A DNA stretch of 64,000 nt, taken from Eggerthellaceae bacterium. GTDB taxonomy: Bacteria > Bacillota > Clostridia > Christensenellales > UBA1242. The notes below the pieces were generated by a model. It was not told the DNA's origin and did no database searches. It saw only the letters and a program-made list of their open reading frames with translations. Location of the stretch: contig CAVCJG010000002.1 of the NCBI GenBank assembly GCA_963602685.1, forward strand, positions 34,547 through 98,546, read 5' to 3'. The position numbers and the translations under genes are program-made. Shown piece by piece: positions 24,060-43,069 of this stretch (positions within the stretch are counted from its first letter, which is position 1; every line of letters starts with the position of its first letter).

Positions 24060-24124
24060 AATTGCATATTTTAAAAAAATATGTGCAAAAATAGTTGATT
24101 TTTTGATTAGATTTTGATATAGTT

Positions 24125-24195
24125 ATAAGGCAAAGTCACAAAAGAAGCTTAAAACGAATAAATATTTGTGACTGGGCATACAGATTTTGCCTTAT
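24125..24195 (+). other. Long imperfect hairpin just upstream of tRNA-Gly
   Basis: ATAAGGCAAAGTCACAAA (24125-24142) pairs with TTTGTGAC (24165-24172) and TTTGCCTTAT (24186-24195). That gives 18 bp with a 13-nt 3' bulge. Confidence 0.4.
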
Positions 24196-24203
24196 TTCGA
24201 TAT

Positions 24204-24279
24204 GCGGGAGTGGCTCAGTTGGTAGAGCGTTGCCTTGCCAAGGCAAAGGTCGCGGGTTCGAACCCCGTCTTCCGCTCCA
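24204..24279 (+). tRNA. tRNA-Gly (anticodon GCC)
   Basis: Cloverleaf with anticodon arm TTGCC-TTGCCAA-GGCAA, T-arm GCGGG-TTCGAAC-CCCGT, and encoded CCA. Confidence 0.9.
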
Positions 24280-24337: not shown

Positions 24338-24412
24338 GGTACCATAGCCAAGTGGTAAGGCAAAGGTCTGCAAAACCTTCATTCCCCGGTTCAAATCCGG
24401 GTGGTACCTCCA
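24338..24412 (+). tRNA. tRNA-Cys (anticodon GCA)
   Basis: GGTACCATAGCCAAGTGGTAAGGC...CTGCAAA loop, T-arm CCCGG-TTCAAAT-CCGGG, and encoded CCA. Confidence 0.9.
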
Positions 24413-24428
24413 AATTAAACAGCAATAA

Positions 24429-24514
24429 GCTGGTGTGGCGGAATGGCAGACGCACAGGACTTAAAATCCTGAGAGGGCAACTTCGTGTGGGTTCAAGTCC
24501 CACCACCAGCACCA
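24429..24514 (+). tRNA. tRNA-Leu (anticodon UAA), long variable arm
   Basis: 86 nt. Anticodon arm CAGGA-CTTAAAA-TCCTG, T-arm GTGGG-TTCAAGT-CCCAC, acceptor GCTGGTG/CACCAGC, and encoded CCA. Confidence 0.9.
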
Positions 24515-24847
24515 CAAACCGAAGTAGTAACATCAGTTACTATTTTTTTTATTCAAAAACCAGAGCAAATTTTTTAGGTGGGACTTTTCAAGTCCTTCCT
24601 GTCGGACCCGGACCGCGAGCAAGTCGCTCCCGGCTTGTCGTTCGCGCTGCTCACTGGCTAAAAACAAGCGCACCGGCTTGTTTTCTTAACGCGTCGCCCC
24701 ACCAGCACCATAGACCGAAGTAGTAACATCAGTTACTATTTTTTTTATTCTAAAACCAGAGCAAATTTTTTAGGTGGGACTTTTCAAGTCCTTCCTGTCG
24801 GATCCAGACCGCGAACAAGTCGCTCCCGGCTTCGGCTAAAACAAAAC
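24497..24847 (+). repeat. About 1.75 tandem copies of a 196-bp unit that begins inside the tRNA-Leu 3' end
   Basis: The last 18 nt of tRNA-Leu (GTCCCACCACCAGCACCA) recur at 24693-24710 as GTCGCCCCACCAGCACCA. The following 122 nt (24515-24636 versus 24711-24832) differ at 6 positions. Confidence 0.85.
24525..24550 (+). terminator. Intrinsic terminator of the tRNA operon (second copy at 24721-24746)
   Basis: TAGTAAC-atca-GTTACTA followed by T8. Confidence 0.7.
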
Positions 24848-24860
24848 ATGGTTGTATGTT

Positions 24861-24890
24861 TTGACAACTTGTTTGCTTATTTGTTATAAT
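24861..24890 (+). promoter_or_regulatory. Promoter TTGACA-N18-TATAAT placed 6 nt from the ATG (leaderless geometry)
   Basis: -35 at 24861-24866 and -10 at 24885-24890. ATG at 24897 has no SD. Confidence 0.55.
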
Positions 24891-24896
24891 AAATCT

Positions 24897-25319
24897 ATGA
24901 TAAGCGAAGATAGATACAAACATATTATTGCGGTTGCAAGACTTATGAAAGAAGAATGTGTAAAGAACAAAAAATCCAAAGAATATGCTGAAGAAATGTT
25001 TACTCTTGGACTTTTACACGATATTGGATATGAGTTTGGGGAACATGCTGAACATAGTCAAGTCGGTTTTGCAATCCTAGATAGGCAAGGGTATAAATAT
25101 GCCAATGAAATAAGGTTTCACGGCGACGATAGTTGCGAATATGCTTCAAAAGAACTTGATTTGCTTAATTTTGCCGATATGCACACAAACGAAAAGGGTG
25201 AGTATGTAACTTTTGAAGAACGATTGCAAGATATCGCTGACAGGCGTGGAGTTAACTCCGATGCATACAAGTCGGCAAAGAATATTATCAATGGTTTGTT
25301 GCAAAAAGGCTATAAATAG
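24897..25319 (+). CDS. HD-domain phosphohydrolase (about 140 aa)
   Basis: H...LGLLHDIGYEF HD motif. The start is set at the ATG because the upstream TTG-initiated part of the ORF overlaps the promoter. Confidence 0.7.
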   Translation: MISEDRYKHIIAVARLMKEECVKNKKSKEYAEEMFTLGLLHDIGYEFGEHAEHSQVGFAILDRQGYKYANEIRFHGDDSCEYASKELDLLNFADMHTNEKGEYVTFEERLQDIADRRGVNSDAYKSAKNIINGLLQKGYK

Positions 25320-31702: not shown

Positions 31703-31777
31703 GTTCTCGTAGTTCAACGGATAGAACAAGAGCCTCCTAAGCTCTAGATGTGGTTTCGATTACCGCCGGGAACACCA
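31703..31777 (+). tRNA. tRNA-Arg (anticodon CCU)
   Basis: Cloverleaf with acceptor GTTCTCG/CGGGAAC, anticodon arm AGAGC-CTCCTAA-GCTCT, T-arm GTGGT-TTCGATT-ACCGC, and encoded CCA. Confidence 0.85.
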
Positions 31778-36764: not shown

Positions 36765-36960
36765 CTTTTTAGGTTGCAACAACCTTGCTGATTATTGTTT
36801 CAGCACAAAGGGCGTGTTGCGCAGAGAACTGGCATTTTGCAAAGATTGCTTAAAAGGCATGTATGAAGAAATTGGCAAAATTCAAGTTCCTAAAGCCACC
36901 AACTCGCCATTCAAATTAAGATCAAGGATAAGGAAGGACAGATATGAAGAAGACAATTAA
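36751..36960 (+). CDS. Cys4 zinc-ribbon-like miniprotein (69 aa)
   Basis: CDFLGC...FCKDC (Cx4C...Cx2C). It overlaps both neighbours and occupies the slot where a large terminase is normally found. Confidence 0.4.
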   Translation: MTKCDFLGCNNLADYCFSTKGVLRRELAFCKDCLKGMYEEIGKIQVPKATNSPFKLRSRIRKDRYEEDN

Positions 36961-38800
36961 AAACGAACAAATAGTAAAAGAAGTCAAAGACGATTTTGCG
37001 GCAAGACAAATGGCGCGCAAACCATTTGAGTCGCAGTGGCTTATGAACATGAACTTTTATATGGGCAATCAATTTTGCGACATCGGCTATGGCGGAAACG
37101 TTGAAGAAGTTGACAAACAATTTTTCTGGCAAGAGCGTGAAATTTTCAACCACATTTCGCCGCTTGTTGATGTTAGACTTGCAAAATTAGGAAAAATAAA
37201 GCCAAAAACAACAGTTTTGCCAGCAACAAATGACGAAAAAGACATAAGCGCGGCAAAAGTATCAAAAAAGATTATTGAAAGTGTAACAAGCAAACTTGAT
37301 TTAAACCACAAAATCATCGAAGCGTTGCAGTGGAGCGAAATTTGCGGAACAAGTTTTTACAAAGTGACTTGGAATCCGAATGCGGGTCAAATAATCGCAC
37401 AAGATGCCGACGGAAAACCAGTTCGCAGTGGTGAAGTGGACATCTCAGTTTGCTCGCCATTCGAAATTTATCCCGACTCGTTTACTTGCGAAACTCTCGA
37501 CAGTTGCCAAAGCATAATTCATGCACGTGCGGTCGACGCTAAAAAAGTTGCCAGCGATTATGGCTTGCAAGTAGAAGGCGAAAATTTAAGCATATATTCG
37601 CTTGATTCAACAACAGTCGGATTTGGCGGACTTGGCTATTCGTCAGCAGCGCCAAAAATCAGCAAAGGCATCAAACAAAACAGTGTGCTTGTGCTTGAAA
37701 GATACGAGCGCCCAACCGAAGATTATCCTTTCGGCAGACTTACAATAGTTGTCGGCGACAATCTTGTTTACGACGGCGAACTGCCTTATAAACTTGGCAG
37801 CGATTACGAACGCGATTTTCCATTTGTTAAACAAACTTCGCTCAATCAAGTTGGCTCTTTTTGGGGAGTCAGTGTAATCGACAGATTGATTCCAATTCAA
37901 CGCGCATTCAACTCGGTTAAAAATCGCAAGCACGAATTTATGAACCGACTCACAATGGGCGTGCTTAAAGTTGAAGACGGCTCGGTCGACATCGAAAACC
38001 TTGAAGATGAAGGAGTTTGCCCAGGCAAGATTTTAGTTTATCGTCAAGGCTCAACAGCGCCTGAATTTTTAGAGGGCGACAATGTTTCATCAAGTTTTAG
38101 CGACGAAGAAGAAAAGTTGCTTGCCGAATTTAGAAGCATAAGCGGCGTAAAAGATTTTGACTATGACTATGCTTCATCAAATGTTTCAGGTGTGACACTT
38201 CAACTCATGCTCGAACAAGACGAGTTAAGACTCAACAACACAGCCGAAAACATGAAACGTTGTGTTCGCAAAATTGCACAGGACGTGCTTAGACTTTACA
38301 AGCAGTTTGCGCTTATTCCACGCCTTGCAAGAATAGTGGGTGACAACGGCGAAATTGAACTTTTCTATTTCAATTCAAACGACATTTCAAGTGACGATAT
38401 TTCACTTGAAGCGACAGCCGAACTTGGCGAAAGCATAACTCAACGCCGTCAAATGGTGTTTGACCTTATAAATGCCGGACTTCTTAACGACAACGGCAAC
38501 GAAATGAGCGATAAGATGAAAGTTAAAGCACTTGAACTTCTTGGACTCGGCGTCTGGGAAAACGCGCAAGACACAAACGAATTGCACATCAAAAAAGCGG
38601 ACAGCGAAAACGTTAAGTTGCTTGGTGGCAAAAGTGTAGAACCAAGTCAAATCGACGACCATGCGCTTCACATCGACCGTCATATCGCGTTTATGCTTAA
38701 TGGCGATTATGAAAAGAAACTTGCAGTTCGTCCTGAACTTGAAAGCATCTTTTTGGCACATATAAACAAACACAAAAGCATGCTTAAAGAGCAGCAATAA
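36944..38800 (+). CDS. Phage portal protein (618 aa)
   Basis: The N-terminal ARQMARKPFESQWLMNMNFYMGNQ motif is typical of podovirus-type portals. Size and position before the scaffold and coat genes fit. Confidence 0.7.
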   Translation: MKKTIKNEQIVKEVKDDFAARQMARKPFESQWLMNMNFYMGNQFCDIGYGGNVEEVDKQFFWQEREIFNHISPLVDVRLAKLGKIKPKTTVLPATNDEKDISAAKVSKKIIESVTSKLDLNHKIIEALQWSEICGTSFYKVTWNPNAGQIIAQDADGKPVRSGEVDISVCSPFEIYPDSFTCETLDSCQSIIHARAVDAKKVASDYGLQVEGENLSIYSLDSTTVGFGGLGYSSAAPKISKGIKQNSVLVLERYERPTEDYPFGRLTIVVGDNLVYDGELPYKLGSDYERDFPFVKQTSLNQVGSFWGVSVIDRLIPIQRAFNSVKNRKHEFMNRLTMGVLKVEDGSVDIENLEDEGVCPGKILVYRQGSTAPEFLEGDNVSSSFSDEEEKLLAEFRSISGVKDFDYDYASSNVSGVTLQLMLEQDELRLNNTAENMKRCVRKIAQDVLRLYKQFALIPRLARIVGDNGEIELFYFNSNDISSDDISLEATAELGESITQRRQMVFDLINAGLLNDNGNEMSDKMKVKALELLGLGVWENAQDTNELHIKKADSENVKLLGGKSVEPSQIDDHALHIDRHIAFMLNGDYEKKLAVRPELESIFLAHINKHKSMLKEQQ

Positions 38801-39444: not shown

Positions 39445-40722
39445 ATGGTTACATTAACAAACGTAGAAAATGCTCTTAAAGACGTTTATCTTGGAGTTGT
39501 TGCAAACCAACTTAACGTTTCAACAAACCCACTTCTTGCAAAAATCAAACGCACAACAAAAGACGTTTGGGGCAAAGAAATCGTAAAAATGGCACCTTAT
39601 GGACTTAACGGTGGCGTAGGCGCTGGTGGCGAAACATCAATGCTTCCAGGGGCATTTGGAAATAAATACGCTCAATTTAGAGCAACACTTAAAAACCTTT
39701 ATGGTAAAATCGAAATTTCAGACAAAGCAGTGCGCAGCACAGCAAACAACATGGGCGCTTTTGTAAATCTTTTACAAGACGAAATGGAAGGCCTTTTGAA
39801 GGCAAGCTCTTTCAACCTTGGCAGAATGCTTTATGGCGACGGAACAGGCAAGTTGGGAACTGCACTTTACACAGAATCTGACGGCGGAAATATCGTCTGC
39901 GACAAAGTAAACAACCTTGTTGAAGGAATGGTTATTGACATGGTCAACCAAACAACCGGACTTGCAGATTATTCTAGATGCAGAGTTACATATGTAGACA
40001 GAGTAAACAAAAAAATCCGCGTAGACAAAATGAACATCAGAGTTTTGGAATCTAAACCTTATGGAATGTATGTCCAAGGCTCATACAACAACGAAATCAC
40101 AGGAATTGGAGCACTTTTCAATGGCTCTACAACACTTTATGGGCTTACAAGAGCCGACTATTTGTGGCTTAACCCATACAAGTCAACCGAAGAAAAAGAA
40201 GTTTCTGACAATATGATTCAAACAGCGATTGACTTCCTTGATGAAAATGCAGATTCAAAAGTAAACTACATTTCTTGCTCAAGCAAAGTTAGACGCGCTT
40301 ATCAACAATACATGAACGCTTACAAATCAAACATCGAAATCGTTGATTTAGGTGAAGGCTTCAAAGCAATTTCTTACAATGGAATTCCAATGTTTGCCGA
40401 CAGATTTGTTGACGAAGACACAATGTATTTGTTAAACACAAACGACTTTACAATGCACGAACTTTGCGACTGGCAATGGATTGAAGGTGACAGCGGTCAC
40501 ATTCTTAAACAAAACGCAAGCTATCCAACATACTCTGCAACTCTTGTTAAGTATGCTGAACTTATCTGCGACAGACCAAATGGACAAGCAAAGATTTCAG
40601 GCATCAAATCAACAATCACAAATCCATTAAACCTTACCGCAAATGTTACCTGTGAATGCAACTGCGCAAGCAGCTCAACAACAACAGACACACAAGATCC
40701 AAGCGGAAGCGACGGAGAATAA
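39445..40722 (+). CDS. Phage major capsid (coat) protein (425 aa)
   Basis: It follows the scaffold gene and has a strong SD. Size and N-terminal pattern are coat-like. The C-terminal Cys/Ser/Thr-rich tail is unusual. Confidence 0.65.
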   Translation: MVTLTNVENALKDVYLGVVANQLNVSTNPLLAKIKRTTKDVWGKEIVKMAPYGLNGGVGAGGETSMLPGAFGNKYAQFRATLKNLYGKIEISDKAVRSTANNMGAFVNLLQDEMEGLLKASSFNLGRMLYGDGTGKLGTALYTESDGGNIVCDKVNNLVEGMVIDMVNQTTGLADYSRCRVTYVDRVNKKIRVDKMNIRVLESKPYGMYVQGSYNNEITGIGALFNGSTTLYGLTRADYLWLNPYKSTEEKEVSDNMIQTAIDFLDENADSKVNYISCSSKVRRAYQQYMNAYKSNIEIVDLGEGFKAISYNGIPMFADRFVDEDTMYLLNTNDFTMHELCDWQWIEGDSGHILKQNASYPTYSATLVKYAELICDRPNGQAKISGIKSTITNPLNLTANVTCECNCASSSTTTDTQDPSGSDGE

Positions 40723-41638: not shown

Positions 41639-43069
41639 ATGTTCAACAGAAAAACTCTTCCAACAAGATCGGGAAAACTCCAAACCGCGCAAATCGACGA
41701 TTACAACGAAATCGAACAACTCAGTTACAACGTCAGAGTGACCGAAAACGGCATCGAAGACGGCTATGGTTTTGAAAGATTGACCCTTCCGACATCGGCG
41801 CTTTCGCCCGAGCAAACCTTTTCGTTAAACGCCACCCAAATTTATGGATTATGGCAGTTTAAGTGGTTTGACAACACCGCAAACGTTGATAAATATTACA
41901 TTTATTACATGAACGAAAACAGACAAATAAAATACATCAACATCTTGTCAAAAAAGACGATTTATGTGACAAACATAACTCTGAATTCTTACACGCCTTC
42001 GTGCGCGACTTTTAGAATCAATGATGACAATGACATGATATTTTTCTCTTCCGAAACCGACCAAACTATCGGCCACGGCGGAAGCGGAAAGCAGGTTTTT
42101 GAAAACATTCCGAAGTTTATTTCGGGTTGCTGGCATGGCCCATATCTGTTTTTAGTGACAACTGGCGCGGCAAACAAACTTATTTACAGCCGTTCAAAAA
42201 TCGACATTTGGAACGACGACAACACCGAAGAAGTTGTGATTCCCGATGTGCGCGGTGGCATGAAAAAGGTCATATCAGTCAACGACAATTTGTATCTGTT
42301 TTATGAATATGGAATCGTTAAACTTTCGCTTTATTCGACTGATGCAAAAGTTGCTTACAGCCACATATTCAATTCGTCGGCATACATCTATCCAAACACG
42401 ATTGCAAAATGCGGCAACAGCATTTATTTTCTGACTTCCGAAGGAATTTTCTCTCTCGAAGGCGGACAAGTTAAAAAACTTGCCGCGCAGTCAGAATATA
42501 TTTGCGAGTCCAACTCAAAAGCGTGCGGAGAATGCTATGACGACAAATACTTTTTGGCGTGCAAATGCAACTTTGCAGACGGCAAAACGATAGGCGAAGA
42601 AAACACTTCAAACCATCAAAACAACGCGCTTGTTGTTCTTGATTTAAAAACGCAAAAGTTTTCATACACGCGCGGAATTGATATTGTGAGTTTGCTTGAT
42701 ATCAAAACTCCACAAGTGCAAAAACTTTGCGCCATTTTCCGCGGCAACAGCAAATCGCTGATTGGCCAACTTACAACCGACGGCAAATTCTTTGGCGAGC
42801 AACTTCCAAAATGCTGGCAAAGCAAGCCGCTCGATTTTGGCTCGCTTGACGAAAAAGAGATTGTTGAAATCGGTTTCAAAAGTGGCGCAGTTGGAGATAT
42901 GAGCATATCTTCTTTTGACCGGACAAAATCGCTTGCGCTGTCAAATGGGCAGTCACAGCCGGTCAAATGCAAAGCAAAAGTGCTTGGCGAAGTTTTCACT
43001 TTGTCTTTTAGTTCTTCATCAAGTTTAAAAATATCTTATCCAAAAATAAAGGTTAAGCATTTTGAATGA
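41639..43069 (+). CDS. Possible tail hub/nozzle protein (476 aa), beta-propeller-like repeats
   Basis: The call rests on position and size (compare P22 gp10). Recurring strand motifs are YYIYYMNE, LYLFYEYGIVKL, IYFLTSEGIFSL and YFLACK. Confidence 0.35.
   Translation: MFNRKTLPTRSGKLQTAQIDDYNEIEQLSYNVRVTENGIEDGYGFERLTLPTSALSPEQTFSLNATQIYGLWQFKWFDNTANVDKYYIYYMNENRQIKYINILSKKTIYVTNITLNSYTPSCATFRINDDNDMIFFSSETDQTIGHGGSGKQVFENIPKFISGCWHGPYLFLVTTGAANKLIYSRSKIDIWNDDNTEEVVIPDVRGGMKKVISVNDNLYLFYEYGIVKLSLYSTDAKVAYSHIFNSSAYIYPNTIAKCGNSIYFLTSEGIFSLEGGQVKKLAAQSEYICESNSKACGECYDDKYFLACKCNFADGKTIGEENTSNHQNNALVVLDLKTQKFSYTRGIDIVSLLDIKTPQVQKLCAIFRGNSKSLIGQLTTDGKFFGEQLPKCWQSKPLDFGSLDEKEIVEIGFKSGAVGDMSISSFDRTKSLALSNGQSQPVKCKAKVLGEVFTLSFSSSSSLKISYPKIKVKHFE

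Follow-up and report, generated by a model that had tools for sequence, protein, structure and literature searches.

The tRNA-Leu(UAA) gene on contig CAVCJG010000002.1 is followed by a tandem repeat that starts within the tRNA's 3' end and carries a GC-rich block, which raises the question of whether such a unit is a scar of integration, a mobile element or the template of an RNA. The window analyzed here is a 64,000-nt stretch of this contig, to which all window coordinates refer; related public loci recovered are designated Lnnn. The initial annotation had offered two readings, an attL/attR-type scar and an analog of the Escherichia coli tyrT-rtT locus. We found that the repeat belongs to a family of structured units located at the tRNA genes of gut Clostridia, and that the second reading is supported and can be generalized: with moderate confidence, we regard the repeat as a clostridial counterpart of the enterobacterial tRNA-linked repeats (TLRs), unrelated to them in sequence and probably forming a transcribed trailer module.

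The repeat downstream of tRNA-Leu(UAA)

A repeat search distinguished one direct-repeat family in the window (24497-24636 versus 24693-24832; 140 nt, 94% identity, period 196). It comprises one complete and one truncated unit, composed of the following elements:

24429-24514, + strand: tRNA-Leu(UAA), the third gene of a Gly-Cys-Leu operon (ARAGORN)
24497-24514: first copy of the repeated end (B0), i.e., the T-loop end, T-stem 3' strand, acceptor 3' strand and ACCA
24515-24576, + strand: spacer X of unit 1, with an A/U-rich terminator (stem 24521-24531/24536-24546, U-run) and an AT-rich linker
24577-24595, + strand: tRNA-derived hairpin P0 (-9.9 kcal/mol), from alignment of the tRNA in both orientations
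24596-24700, + strand: conserved scaffold of unit 1 (family alignments, covariation counts, covariance model)
24601-24605 with 24630-24634, + strand: helix P1
24615-24627, + strand: hairpin P2
24637-24655, + strand: optional 19-nt segment
24661-24669 with 24676-24684, + strand: helix P3
24685-24700, + strand: tail CTTAACGCGTCGCCCC
24693-24710, + strand: second copy of the tRNA-Leu end (B), 16/18 identical, with the last 11-12 nt (acceptor 3' strand and ACCA) exact
24711-24850, + strand: truncated unit 2, with spacer X and terminator (24711-24772), P0 (24773-24791) and scaffold through P1 and P2 to 24832

An independent count reproduced the similarities reported in the initial annotation, namely 16/18 identical positions between the tRNA-Leu end at 24497-24514 (GTCCCACCACCAGCACCA) and its copy at 24693-24710 (GTCGCCCCACCAGCACCA), and 116/122 between the blocks 24515-24636 and 24711-24832. 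The latter differ at 24515, 24517, 24555, 24607, 24610 and 24619, the last of these falling, as had been noted, inside the loop of a GCGA-n5-TCGC hairpin. Of the two complementary motifs described there, CCCACC was correctly placed at 24698-24703, while GGTGGG, assigned to 24578, is at 24577-24582. The remark that copy 2 lacks 19 nt holds for the 18-19-nt piece 24637-24655, although the copy is also truncated after ~24850. The description of a GC-rich block behind a terminator hairpin was likewise accurate: the GC content of the scaffold (24598-24700) is 63%, compared with 39.5% for the window and 26% for the spacer (24515-24576), and the terminator-like hairpin at 24521-24546 with its U-run (-10.2 kcal/mol, z = -6.6) looks, from its predicted stability, like a credible intrinsic terminator.

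The left part of P0, GGTGGGACTT (24577-24586), is the reverse complement of the tRNA positions AAGTCCCACC, and its right part, TTCAAGTCC (24587-24595), is a direct copy of the T-loop. Spacer X of the window is homologous to the spacers of other tRNA-Leu units. Unit 2 lacks the optional segment and ends inside P3 (~24850), having neither a tail nor a third copy of the tRNA end; its truncation point is the same in L002, L031 and L036. A 27-nt piece of the GC-rich block occurs at just these two sites in the window (chance expectation 0), a covariance-model search detected one full core (72 bits at 24655-24700), and partial copies were found near tRNA-Leu alone among the five tRNAs of the window. 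The repeat was not scored in a scan of the window with Tandem Repeats Finder, because it comprises just 1.8 copies.

A family of scaffolds at clostridial tRNA genes

Two pattern scans were performed: (i) a 20-mer from the 5' part of the block was searched against one-genome-per-species contigs, and (ii) a 20-mer from the tail was searched against metagenomes. In total, a scaffold of ~105 nt was recognized in 35 public loci of gut Clostridia, where it is single or tandem. The first scan identified an orthologous locus with two copies in Clostridiales bacterium UBA11517 (L002), a unit after tRNA-Leu(AAG) in the metagenome-assembled genome (MAG) CALCWV01 (L003), and units or remnants at both tRNA-Leu genes of another MAG, CALVMJ01 (L004 and L005). 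The second scan added 29 metagenomic loci, many of them with a human gut label. The tRNA hosts represent at least 10 genes: Leu-UAA, Leu-AAG, Leu-CAG, Thr-GGU, Asn, Ser-CGA, Tyr, Met, Lys and Gly. The initial annotation had allowed that relatives might show the sequence as ordinary single-copy spacer; instead they contain a multi-locus family distributed over many tRNAs. The optional 18-19-nt segment (24637-24655 in the window) is present in some family members and absent in others.

At the 3' ends of tRNA genes the family obeys one rule. The scaffold always ends in ...GGCTAAAAAC-[hairpin]-GTTTTCTTAACGCGTCGCCCC, which is followed by 11-18 nt equal to the end of the adjoining tRNA. The copied ends are:

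Leu-UAA (window): CACCAGCACCA
Leu-AAG: CGCTCGCACCA
Leu-UAA of another species: CATCGGCACCA
Thr-GGU: GTCACCAGCTCCA
Asn: ACCTGGGGAGCCA
Ser-CGA: CTCTTTGCGCCA

The units at Tyr, Leu-CAG and Met obey the same rule. Tandem arrays are present in L005, L008, L012, L021 and L035, and copy number varies between close relatives, L003 having one unit and L008 two. One sample contains seven unit-bearing contigs, all with ~3-4x coverage (including L022, the 22,093-nt contig of L003), and a second sample (Ga0256404) contains five; the family is therefore multi-copy within the genomes of such relatives. For the genome of the window itself, 64 kb are visible, with one locus and one full core, while loci of relatives carry from one to at least two units. 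Pattern scans of IMG/VR with both 20-mers gave no match, nor did blastn against 50,697 phage and 72,556 plasmid records.

Apart from these units, three other arrangements were found. A second scaffold type, which carries the same 3' module, is found in the opposite orientation at tRNA-Lys and tRNA-Gly genes, where it faces the 5' end of the gene; behind it, the initial 17-18 nt of the tRNA appear as their reverse complement. The loci L025 and L028 have the scaffold at the anticodon loop of a tRNA-Leu(UAA) pseudo-copy, and the entire 45-nt 3' half follows. The units of L015, L016, L023 and L034 are accompanied by partial tRNA pieces (a Thr 3' half, and an Ile-GAU-like piece from the anticodon loop to the T-loop), with no intact tRNA in the 1.5-7.8 kb examined, up to ~6.5 kb upstream of the unit; promoter-like sequences were noticed upstream in two of these four loci. 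In L026 (1-60), a contig without the upstream part, the segment after the scaffold is CTCCGTCTCCACCA, which agrees with the usual 3' terminus of firmicute transfer-messenger RNA (..CGTCTCCACCA), so this unit may follow ssrA.

Anatomy of the units

Local alignment of each unit to its own tRNA revealed the following order of parts: (i) spacer and terminator, (ii) an inverted piece of the T-arm, (iii) a direct piece of the T-loop, (iv) the scaffold, and (v) the T-stem 3' strand, the acceptor 3' strand and NCCA. In most units, the inverted copy to the left of the scaffold comprises the T-loop, the T-stem 3' strand and the start of the acceptor, and its length differs with the tRNA (Leu 10 nt, exact; Thr 11; Ser 16; Asn 18; Leu-CAG ~20; Tyr 26-29). 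The direct T-loop piece, often diverged, comes directly after it. In L016, L019 and L034 the left tRNA-matching segment is direct and not inverted. The scaffold occupies the point where T-loop and T-stem meet, inside a partially copied tRNA 3' region.

Locus L019 (12900-13430) separates the two components of this arrangement. Here, tRNA-Met(CAU) is followed by two tandem 185-nt units, each composed of the tRNA 3' half from the anticodon loop and a spacer, and the last partial copy alone carries the scaffold, inserted exactly after TTCAAATCC; partial duplication of the tRNA is therefore separable from the presence of the scaffold. In L012, two adjacent tandem units (566-700 and 733-867) are ~96% identical outside the apical part of P3, which is wholly exchanged (TTAATAACATTAAG versus TTGCCACCGGCAAC), and the same variants occur at other loci of that sample. 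This pattern suggests cassette-like recombination between units.

A separate, 5'-side repeat family, sometimes tandem, was observed at tRNA-Leu(UAA) and tRNA-Leu(AAG) genes, at the following sites:

L014: 3180-3345
L003: ~320-600, - strand
L008, L022 and L029: further sites

The opening 16 nt of the local tRNA (GCCGAAGTGGCGGAAT or GCGAGCGTGGCGGAAT) form the start of each unit, ATCTCCA... comes next, and a conserved block, TCGATGCGTCGGAAA..TTTCCTCCTAGTGCAG..CGTCTGCCATCCGCCAC, closes it; the final part of this block reproduces the tRNA D-arm in reverse complement. Judged by its sequence, this family follows the logic of the 3' family, in which the terminus is copied directly and the adjoining arm in inverted form.

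Structure, strand and conservation of the scaffold

The consensus structure predicted with RNAalifold for 21 units consists of P1 (GUCGG with CCGGC), the hairpin P2 and the long hairpin P3, and includes the compensatory series U·G/C-G and G-C/G·U/A-U. Among 22 distinct cores, 95.8% of the cells of P3 are paired, compared with 74.6% after shuffling and at most 53% in slid registers; seven of its nine pairs have changed on both sides, and the observed values were reached by none of 500 shuffles. For P1-P3 taken jointly (17 units), the paired fraction is 94.4% versus 82.5% in shuffled alignments. The helices P1-P3 are maintained by compensatory changes, as is characteristic of a structured RNA. 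Wobble pairs are distributed asymmetrically over the helices (25 G·T, 2 A·C), and from the G·T excess the folded strand is therefore the + strand, in the sense of the tRNA, whether as RNA or as single-stranded DNA (ssDNA). One diverged copy compensates two pairs in the A-run/U-run part of P3, and this part is therefore a stem and not merely a terminator tract.

The 16-nt tail CTTAACGCGTCGCCCC is identical in all full units recovered, among them five that were found through the 5' pattern, and two diverged copies retain TTAACGCGTCGCCCC. Between the window and L002, the tRNA-derived pieces together with the scaffold are identical at 131/134 positions, the neighboring gene at 1065/1125 and spacer X at 55/62.

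A structured RNA had been predicted for this block by the initial annotation, and covariation bears this out; assignment to an Rfam family failed. In a search of the entire window against Rfam 15 at gathering thresholds just tRNAs passed, with no match to the rtT family, and the region 24400-24950, searched at E values up to 10, produced nothing credible (the weak matches to Phage_DGR, STnc370 and PhrS are at chance level). Across 12 related loci, no family was found overlapping the scaffold. Separately, a sub-threshold match to Gut-1 RNA (41.8 bits, gathering score 50, E 6e-5) was recorded in L027 (1480-1549, - strand), just 3' of a tRNA-Ser-linked unit.

Several other identities of the scaffold were considered and set aside. 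A coding function is suggested by one frame that ends at a conserved TAA and tolerates the 18-nt indel, but the frame does not survive further indels (-1 nt in L005 and others in L016 and L020), whereas the pairing of the helices does. An attC site does not fit, as the flanks of P3 do not match the consensus RYYYAAC/GTTRRRY. Ends of IS200/605 or IS91 elements, like attC, stay speculative: no transposase is present, and the left boundary GGTTC| resembles the IS91 target GTTC for T-loop insertions alone. The inverted T-arm piece can pair with the copied end over 6-10 bp in the Leu, Ser, Tyr and Leu-CAG units; as a universal closing stem of a tRNA-like or minihelix structure it was discarded, since this pairing is weak in the Thr and Asn units.

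The units as probable trailer RNAs

The closest precedent for such units is provided by E. coli K-12, which carries 22 TLRs, including rtT, at ten loci in tRNA or rRNA operons, with one to five copies per locus (Stenum et al., 2021; PMC8144298). The last 18-19 bp of each TLR are identical to the 3' end of the upstream gene, and the rrn-linked TLRs, flanked by the terminators T1 and T2, arise when transcription passes T1 and are processed beside the repeat (PMC8144298).

We analyzed the K-12 tyrT/tyrV-rttR locus (L041; NC_000913, 1286200-1287900), which contains three copies with a 178-bp period (- strand, 1044-867 and repeats), each ending in the 19-nt 3' end of tRNA-Tyr, as well as an additional 66% copy in the tyrT-tyrV spacer. 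The tyrT 178-bp repeats, rtT (rttR) and the TLRs are reportedly treated by Egan and Landy in 1978, Bosl and Kersten in 1991 and Rudd in 1999. Each tyrT unit contains, in order, a spacer and GGGGAAGGATGAGAAGCTTCGA, which agrees with the T-arm in reverse complement at 19/22 positions, its first 10 nt without a mismatch. CCAA and the first T-loop half, GGTTCGA, come next and lead to a GC-rich insert of 67 nt that has hairpins of its own; AATCCTTCCCCCACCACCA then completes the T-loop and adds the T-stem, the acceptor strand and CCA. The GC-rich insert is placed exactly between GGTTCGA and AATCC of the T-loop copy. The Tyr unit of E. coli and the clostridial units at Ser and Thr have the junction ACCAAGGTYC in common. 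In the literature searched, this anatomy of tyrT units, with a split T-loop and an inverted copy, was not found stated. In the rrnB trailer, the order is 5S end, T1, core, repeat of the 5S end and T2; a partial 5S copy to the left of the rrnB core was considered and found unconvincing, being a 7-nt match alone. It is this agreement of the 178-bp units with the clostridial ones (inverted T-arm copy, GC-rich insert and tRNA end) that supports the earlier suggestion of a tyrT-rtT analog.

By analogy, the clostridial unit is probably a trailer RNA made by terminator read-through. As in rtT and the rrn-linked small RNAs RrA/B/F, RNA polymerase would read through the first terminator, so that the unit is transcribed with the tRNA operon, and the copied tRNA end would act as a tRNA-type 3' processing site in the trailer RNA. 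Processing would then release unit-length structured RNAs in proportion to the activity of the tRNA operon, and with processing at the tRNA end the level of the trailer RNA would therefore follow transcription of that operon. Tandem copies might be gained or lost by unequal recombination between the tRNA-end copies, as between L003 and L008.

Several points weigh against this reading. Expression of the units in their uncultured hosts is extrapolated from E. coli, and the tRNA-linked TLRs of E. coli themselves have no known function (PMC8144298). The first terminator looks competent, so read-through may be low; no promoter of the unit itself was found, and unit 2 of the window is truncated and lacks a second terminator. 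The clostridial covariance model, applied to the tyrT-rtT and rrnB trailers, gave generic hairpin matches of at most 9.4 bits. With no detectable homology between the cores, the analogy to TLRs is one of architecture, and the clostridial family is classed as an analog or variant and not as a homologous member. The identity of the tail is partly a matter of ascertainment, since the tail served as a search pattern. A pure RNA-gene model would also leave unexplained both the inverted T-arm copy and the scaffolds that lie in tRNA fragments far from an intact tRNA (L015, L016, L023 and L034).

Genomic context

The window contains genes for ComEC, AlaRS, PFOR, SbcCD-like proteins, FolE, AsnA, GroEL, gyrase and a germination protease, and is housekeeping DNA of a spore-forming clostridium. 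Beside the repeat, the following features were annotated:

24095-24123: promoter-like site ahead of the Gly-Cys-Leu operon (promoter scan)
24204-24279, + strand: tRNA-Gly(GCC), gene 1 of the operon (ARAGORN, Rfam tRNA)
24338-24412, + strand: tRNA-Cys(GCA), gene 2 of the operon (ARAGORN, Rfam tRNA)
24861-24890, + strand: sigma-70-type promoter of the HD-domain gene, perfect TTGACA-18-TATAAT (promoter scan)
24897 (ATG) to 25319, + strand: HD-domain gene, abutting the truncated unit 2 and outside the element

In the close relatives L002, L031 and L036 the HD-domain gene is absent, and the truncated unit 2 directly abuts the promoter of the alkaline-phosphatase-family (hereafter phosphatase-family) gene. 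The HD-domain gene is therefore a separate indel, and the phosphatase-family gene, an ordinary neighbor in these three relatives, is not cargo, contrary to the role proposed for both genes in the initial annotation. The ATG of the HD-domain gene lies ~7 nt past the -10 hexamer, and from this spacing its mRNA may be leaderless. Exact-protein look-ups for the HD-domain and phosphatase-family genes found none on record. An empty site was sought through homologs of the phosphatase-family gene, but close relatives were occupied or had contigs broken at the repeat, and none was recovered; the expected comparison of strains yielded variation in copy number (L003 and L008) and no empty site. More distant homologs (63-68% identity) are located away from the tRNA cluster. 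In practice, the units break metagenomic assemblies at tRNA loci.

All-against-all comparison of open reading frames (ORFs) over the 35 loci detected ordinary synteny alone, with no protein recurring across different tRNA contexts, and no integrase, transposase, TnpB or reverse transcriptase was found among the window ORFs of at least 220 aa.

Two further observations concern the surroundings. The leader of the tRNA operon (24117-24203) contains a 21-nt inverted repeat (81% complementary), whose arms include TAAGGCAAAG, a 10-mer of the anticodon-arm region of tRNA-Cys that is nearly the same in tRNA-Gly. At 36944-38800, ~5 kb from tRNA-Arg(CCU) (31703-31777), there is an ORF with a P22-like phage portal domain, followed by two large ORFs without a Pfam match (39445-40722 and 41639-43069); this region may be a prophage remnant or a phage-derived locus.

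Alternative explanations and spread of the module

The strongest competitor of the trailer-RNA reading, less favored by us and yet a serious possibility, is that the unit is primarily a non-autonomous mobile element, which inserts into single-stranded loops (T, anticodon, D) of tRNA genes or of their copies, or at their ends, duplicates the gene terminus and leaves behind an inverted copy of the adjacent tRNA segment. Candidate processes are target-primed reverse transcription of a CCA-ended trailer RNA and an ssDNA/HUH-type process. Such an explanation concerns origin and spread and is compatible with transcription of the units. It draws on the following: (i) in one sample, the spacer, T-arm pieces and scaffold are 93% identical between the loci of Leu-UAA and Leu-AAG, two tRNAs with 76% identity; (ii) each of these copies bears the local acceptor sequence, and both points apply equally to L004 and L005 of one MAG; (iii) at least seven loci come from one sample at ~3-4x coverage and at least five from a second; (iv) the duplicated end measures 11-18 nt (45 nt in L025 and L028) and mostly stops at the mature tRNA end; (v) the scaffold of L019 interrupts one of two otherwise identical partial tRNA-Met copies, after TTCAAATCC; (vi) type-2 scaffolds face the 5' ends of Lys and Gly genes in the opposite orientation; (vii) the apical P3 has been swapped, cassette-like, between adjacent units of L012; and (viii) copy number varies among close relatives (one unit in L003, two in L008). 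Because the identity of the module exceeds that of the tRNAs, the copied end varies and an inverted copy accompanies it, these data suggest a duplicative insertion tied to tRNA loops or termini, which could be target-primed, template-switch-like or guide-like. Mobility is disfavored by the lack of any transposase, reverse transcriptase, integrase or recurrent protein near the 35 loci or in window ORFs of at least 220 aa, by the lack of terminal inverted repeats, and by the failure to recover an empty site; many compensatory changes and an identical tail are moreover unexpected for a young mobile element. We know of no bacterial mechanism that yields target duplications of variable length ending at a mature RNA terminus.

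A broader and decidedly speculative proposal would unite the enterobacterial TLRs, the clostridial family and the 5'-side family in one widespread, so far unrecognized class of self-propagating elements. Elements of such a class would use RNA or ssDNA as a template to place a copy of a structured core at the ends of stable-RNA genes. In the process the mature terminus would be duplicated and the loop or stem next to it copied in inverted form; the segments that match the tRNA would either serve this mechanism for targeting or be the footprint that it leaves.

It is improbable that the units are guide RNAs, of the type of TnpB omega-RNA, Cas12 CRISPR RNA or IS110 bridge RNA, for a remotely encoded nuclease or recombinase acting at tRNA ends. 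This explanation would account for a scaffold directly followed by 11-18 nt that match neighboring DNA and change with the tRNA, for a second tRNA-matching segment on the opposite strand 5' of the scaffold, and for folding of the + strand. However, such a guide would be self-targeting, aimed in cis at a tRNA gene that is intact and essential; the matching segment is not fixed in length (11 to 45 nt), and the left segment is direct in L016, L019 and L034. No match to omega-RNA or another Rfam family and no TnpB, IscB, Cas or IS110 gene near any locus or in the window was found. The same architecture is present in the E. coli units, and TLRs have been studied since 1978 with no known effector (PMC8144298).

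An attL/attR-type scar, left by a phage, integrative and conjugative element or genomic island at the tRNA-Leu 3' end with the HD-domain and phosphatase-family genes as remnant cargo, is very unlikely. The 3' ends, T-loops and anticodon loops of tRNAs are classical sublocations of integration, and the direct repetition of a tRNA 3' end at such a place, together with the HD-domain gene being an indel, would suit this proposal from the initial annotation. It founders on the interval between the repeats, which is merely ~180 nt long and is one conserved scaffold at 10 or more different tRNAs, whereas integrase-specific arm regions would behave otherwise. Neither an integrase nor a recurrent protein was detected in the window or the loci, phage, plasmid and IMG/VR searches gave no match, and the phosphatase-family gene is an ordinary neighbor in relatives. 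It is also possible to misread the units as genomic-island att sites.

Neutral, lineage-specific tandem duplication of an ordinary, functionless spacer, to which the 1.8 copies, the truncation of copy 2 and the absence of a Tandem Repeats Finder score would be congenial, is scarcely credible for a widespread family with many tRNA hosts, compensatory changes and conservation above its flanks.

Comparison with known systems

The clostridial units share with the attL/attR sites of tRNA-integrating islands and with cis-mobilizable elements the repeated tRNA 3' end, breakpoints in the T-loop and anticodon loop, and tandem accretion; they differ in being ~180 nt long, in lacking an integrase and in having one internal sequence at many tRNAs. 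With TnpB omega-RNA they have in common a conserved structured scaffold followed by a variable segment that matches adjacent DNA, whereas no effector gene was seen in their loci and no Rfam match was obtained, their segment varies in length and the intact target is in cis. Another comparison concerns 3'ETS-leuZ, a small RNA sponge that is itself the short native trailer together with its terminator. This functional RNA comes from the trailer of the same conserved Gly-Cys-Leu(UAA) operon, but lacks the copied tRNA end, multi-locus scaffold and tandem units of the clostridial family. This RNA, from the E. coli glyW-cysT-leuZ operon, is mentioned in the account of TLRs by Stenum et al. (2021; PMC8144298).

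The differences from the TLRs are that (i) the hosts are Firmicutes (Clostridia) and not Enterobacteria, (ii) the clostridial units have a P1-P2-P3 fold and a 16-nt tail of their own, (iii) some of them lie at tRNA 5' ends in the opposite orientation, and others occupy the anticodon loop of a tRNA-Leu pseudo-copy, and (iv) expression and processing have been shown in E. coli, while the clostridial units are known here as sequences. TLRs outside enterobacteria were not described in the literature searched, and most E. coli TLRs, known since 1978, are without known function or origin.

The likeness extends to several levels of organization. Most clostridial units directly adjoin a stable-RNA gene on its 3' side and share its orientation; they occur alone or as short tandem arrays, and the end of the unit copies that of the upstream gene (18-19 bp in E. 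coli, 11-18 bp in Clostridia). Both are multi-locus families with a common GC-rich core and a locus-specific end, and both are often situated between a first and a second terminator, the latter being present after the copied end at clostridial single-unit loci. The agreement with the tyrT units extends to the arrangement of the tRNA pieces: in E. coli and Clostridia alike, an inverted T-arm copy comes first, and the core then splits a T-loop copy into halves. The same detailed anatomy in a sequence-unrelated family of a distant phylum makes an accident of one E. coli locus unlikely: the odd anatomy of the tyrT repeat is a recurrent design in two phyla, and the clostridial family provides a second, highly multi-copy system in which to ask what role trailer RNAs have and how a module acquires the end of the local tRNA.

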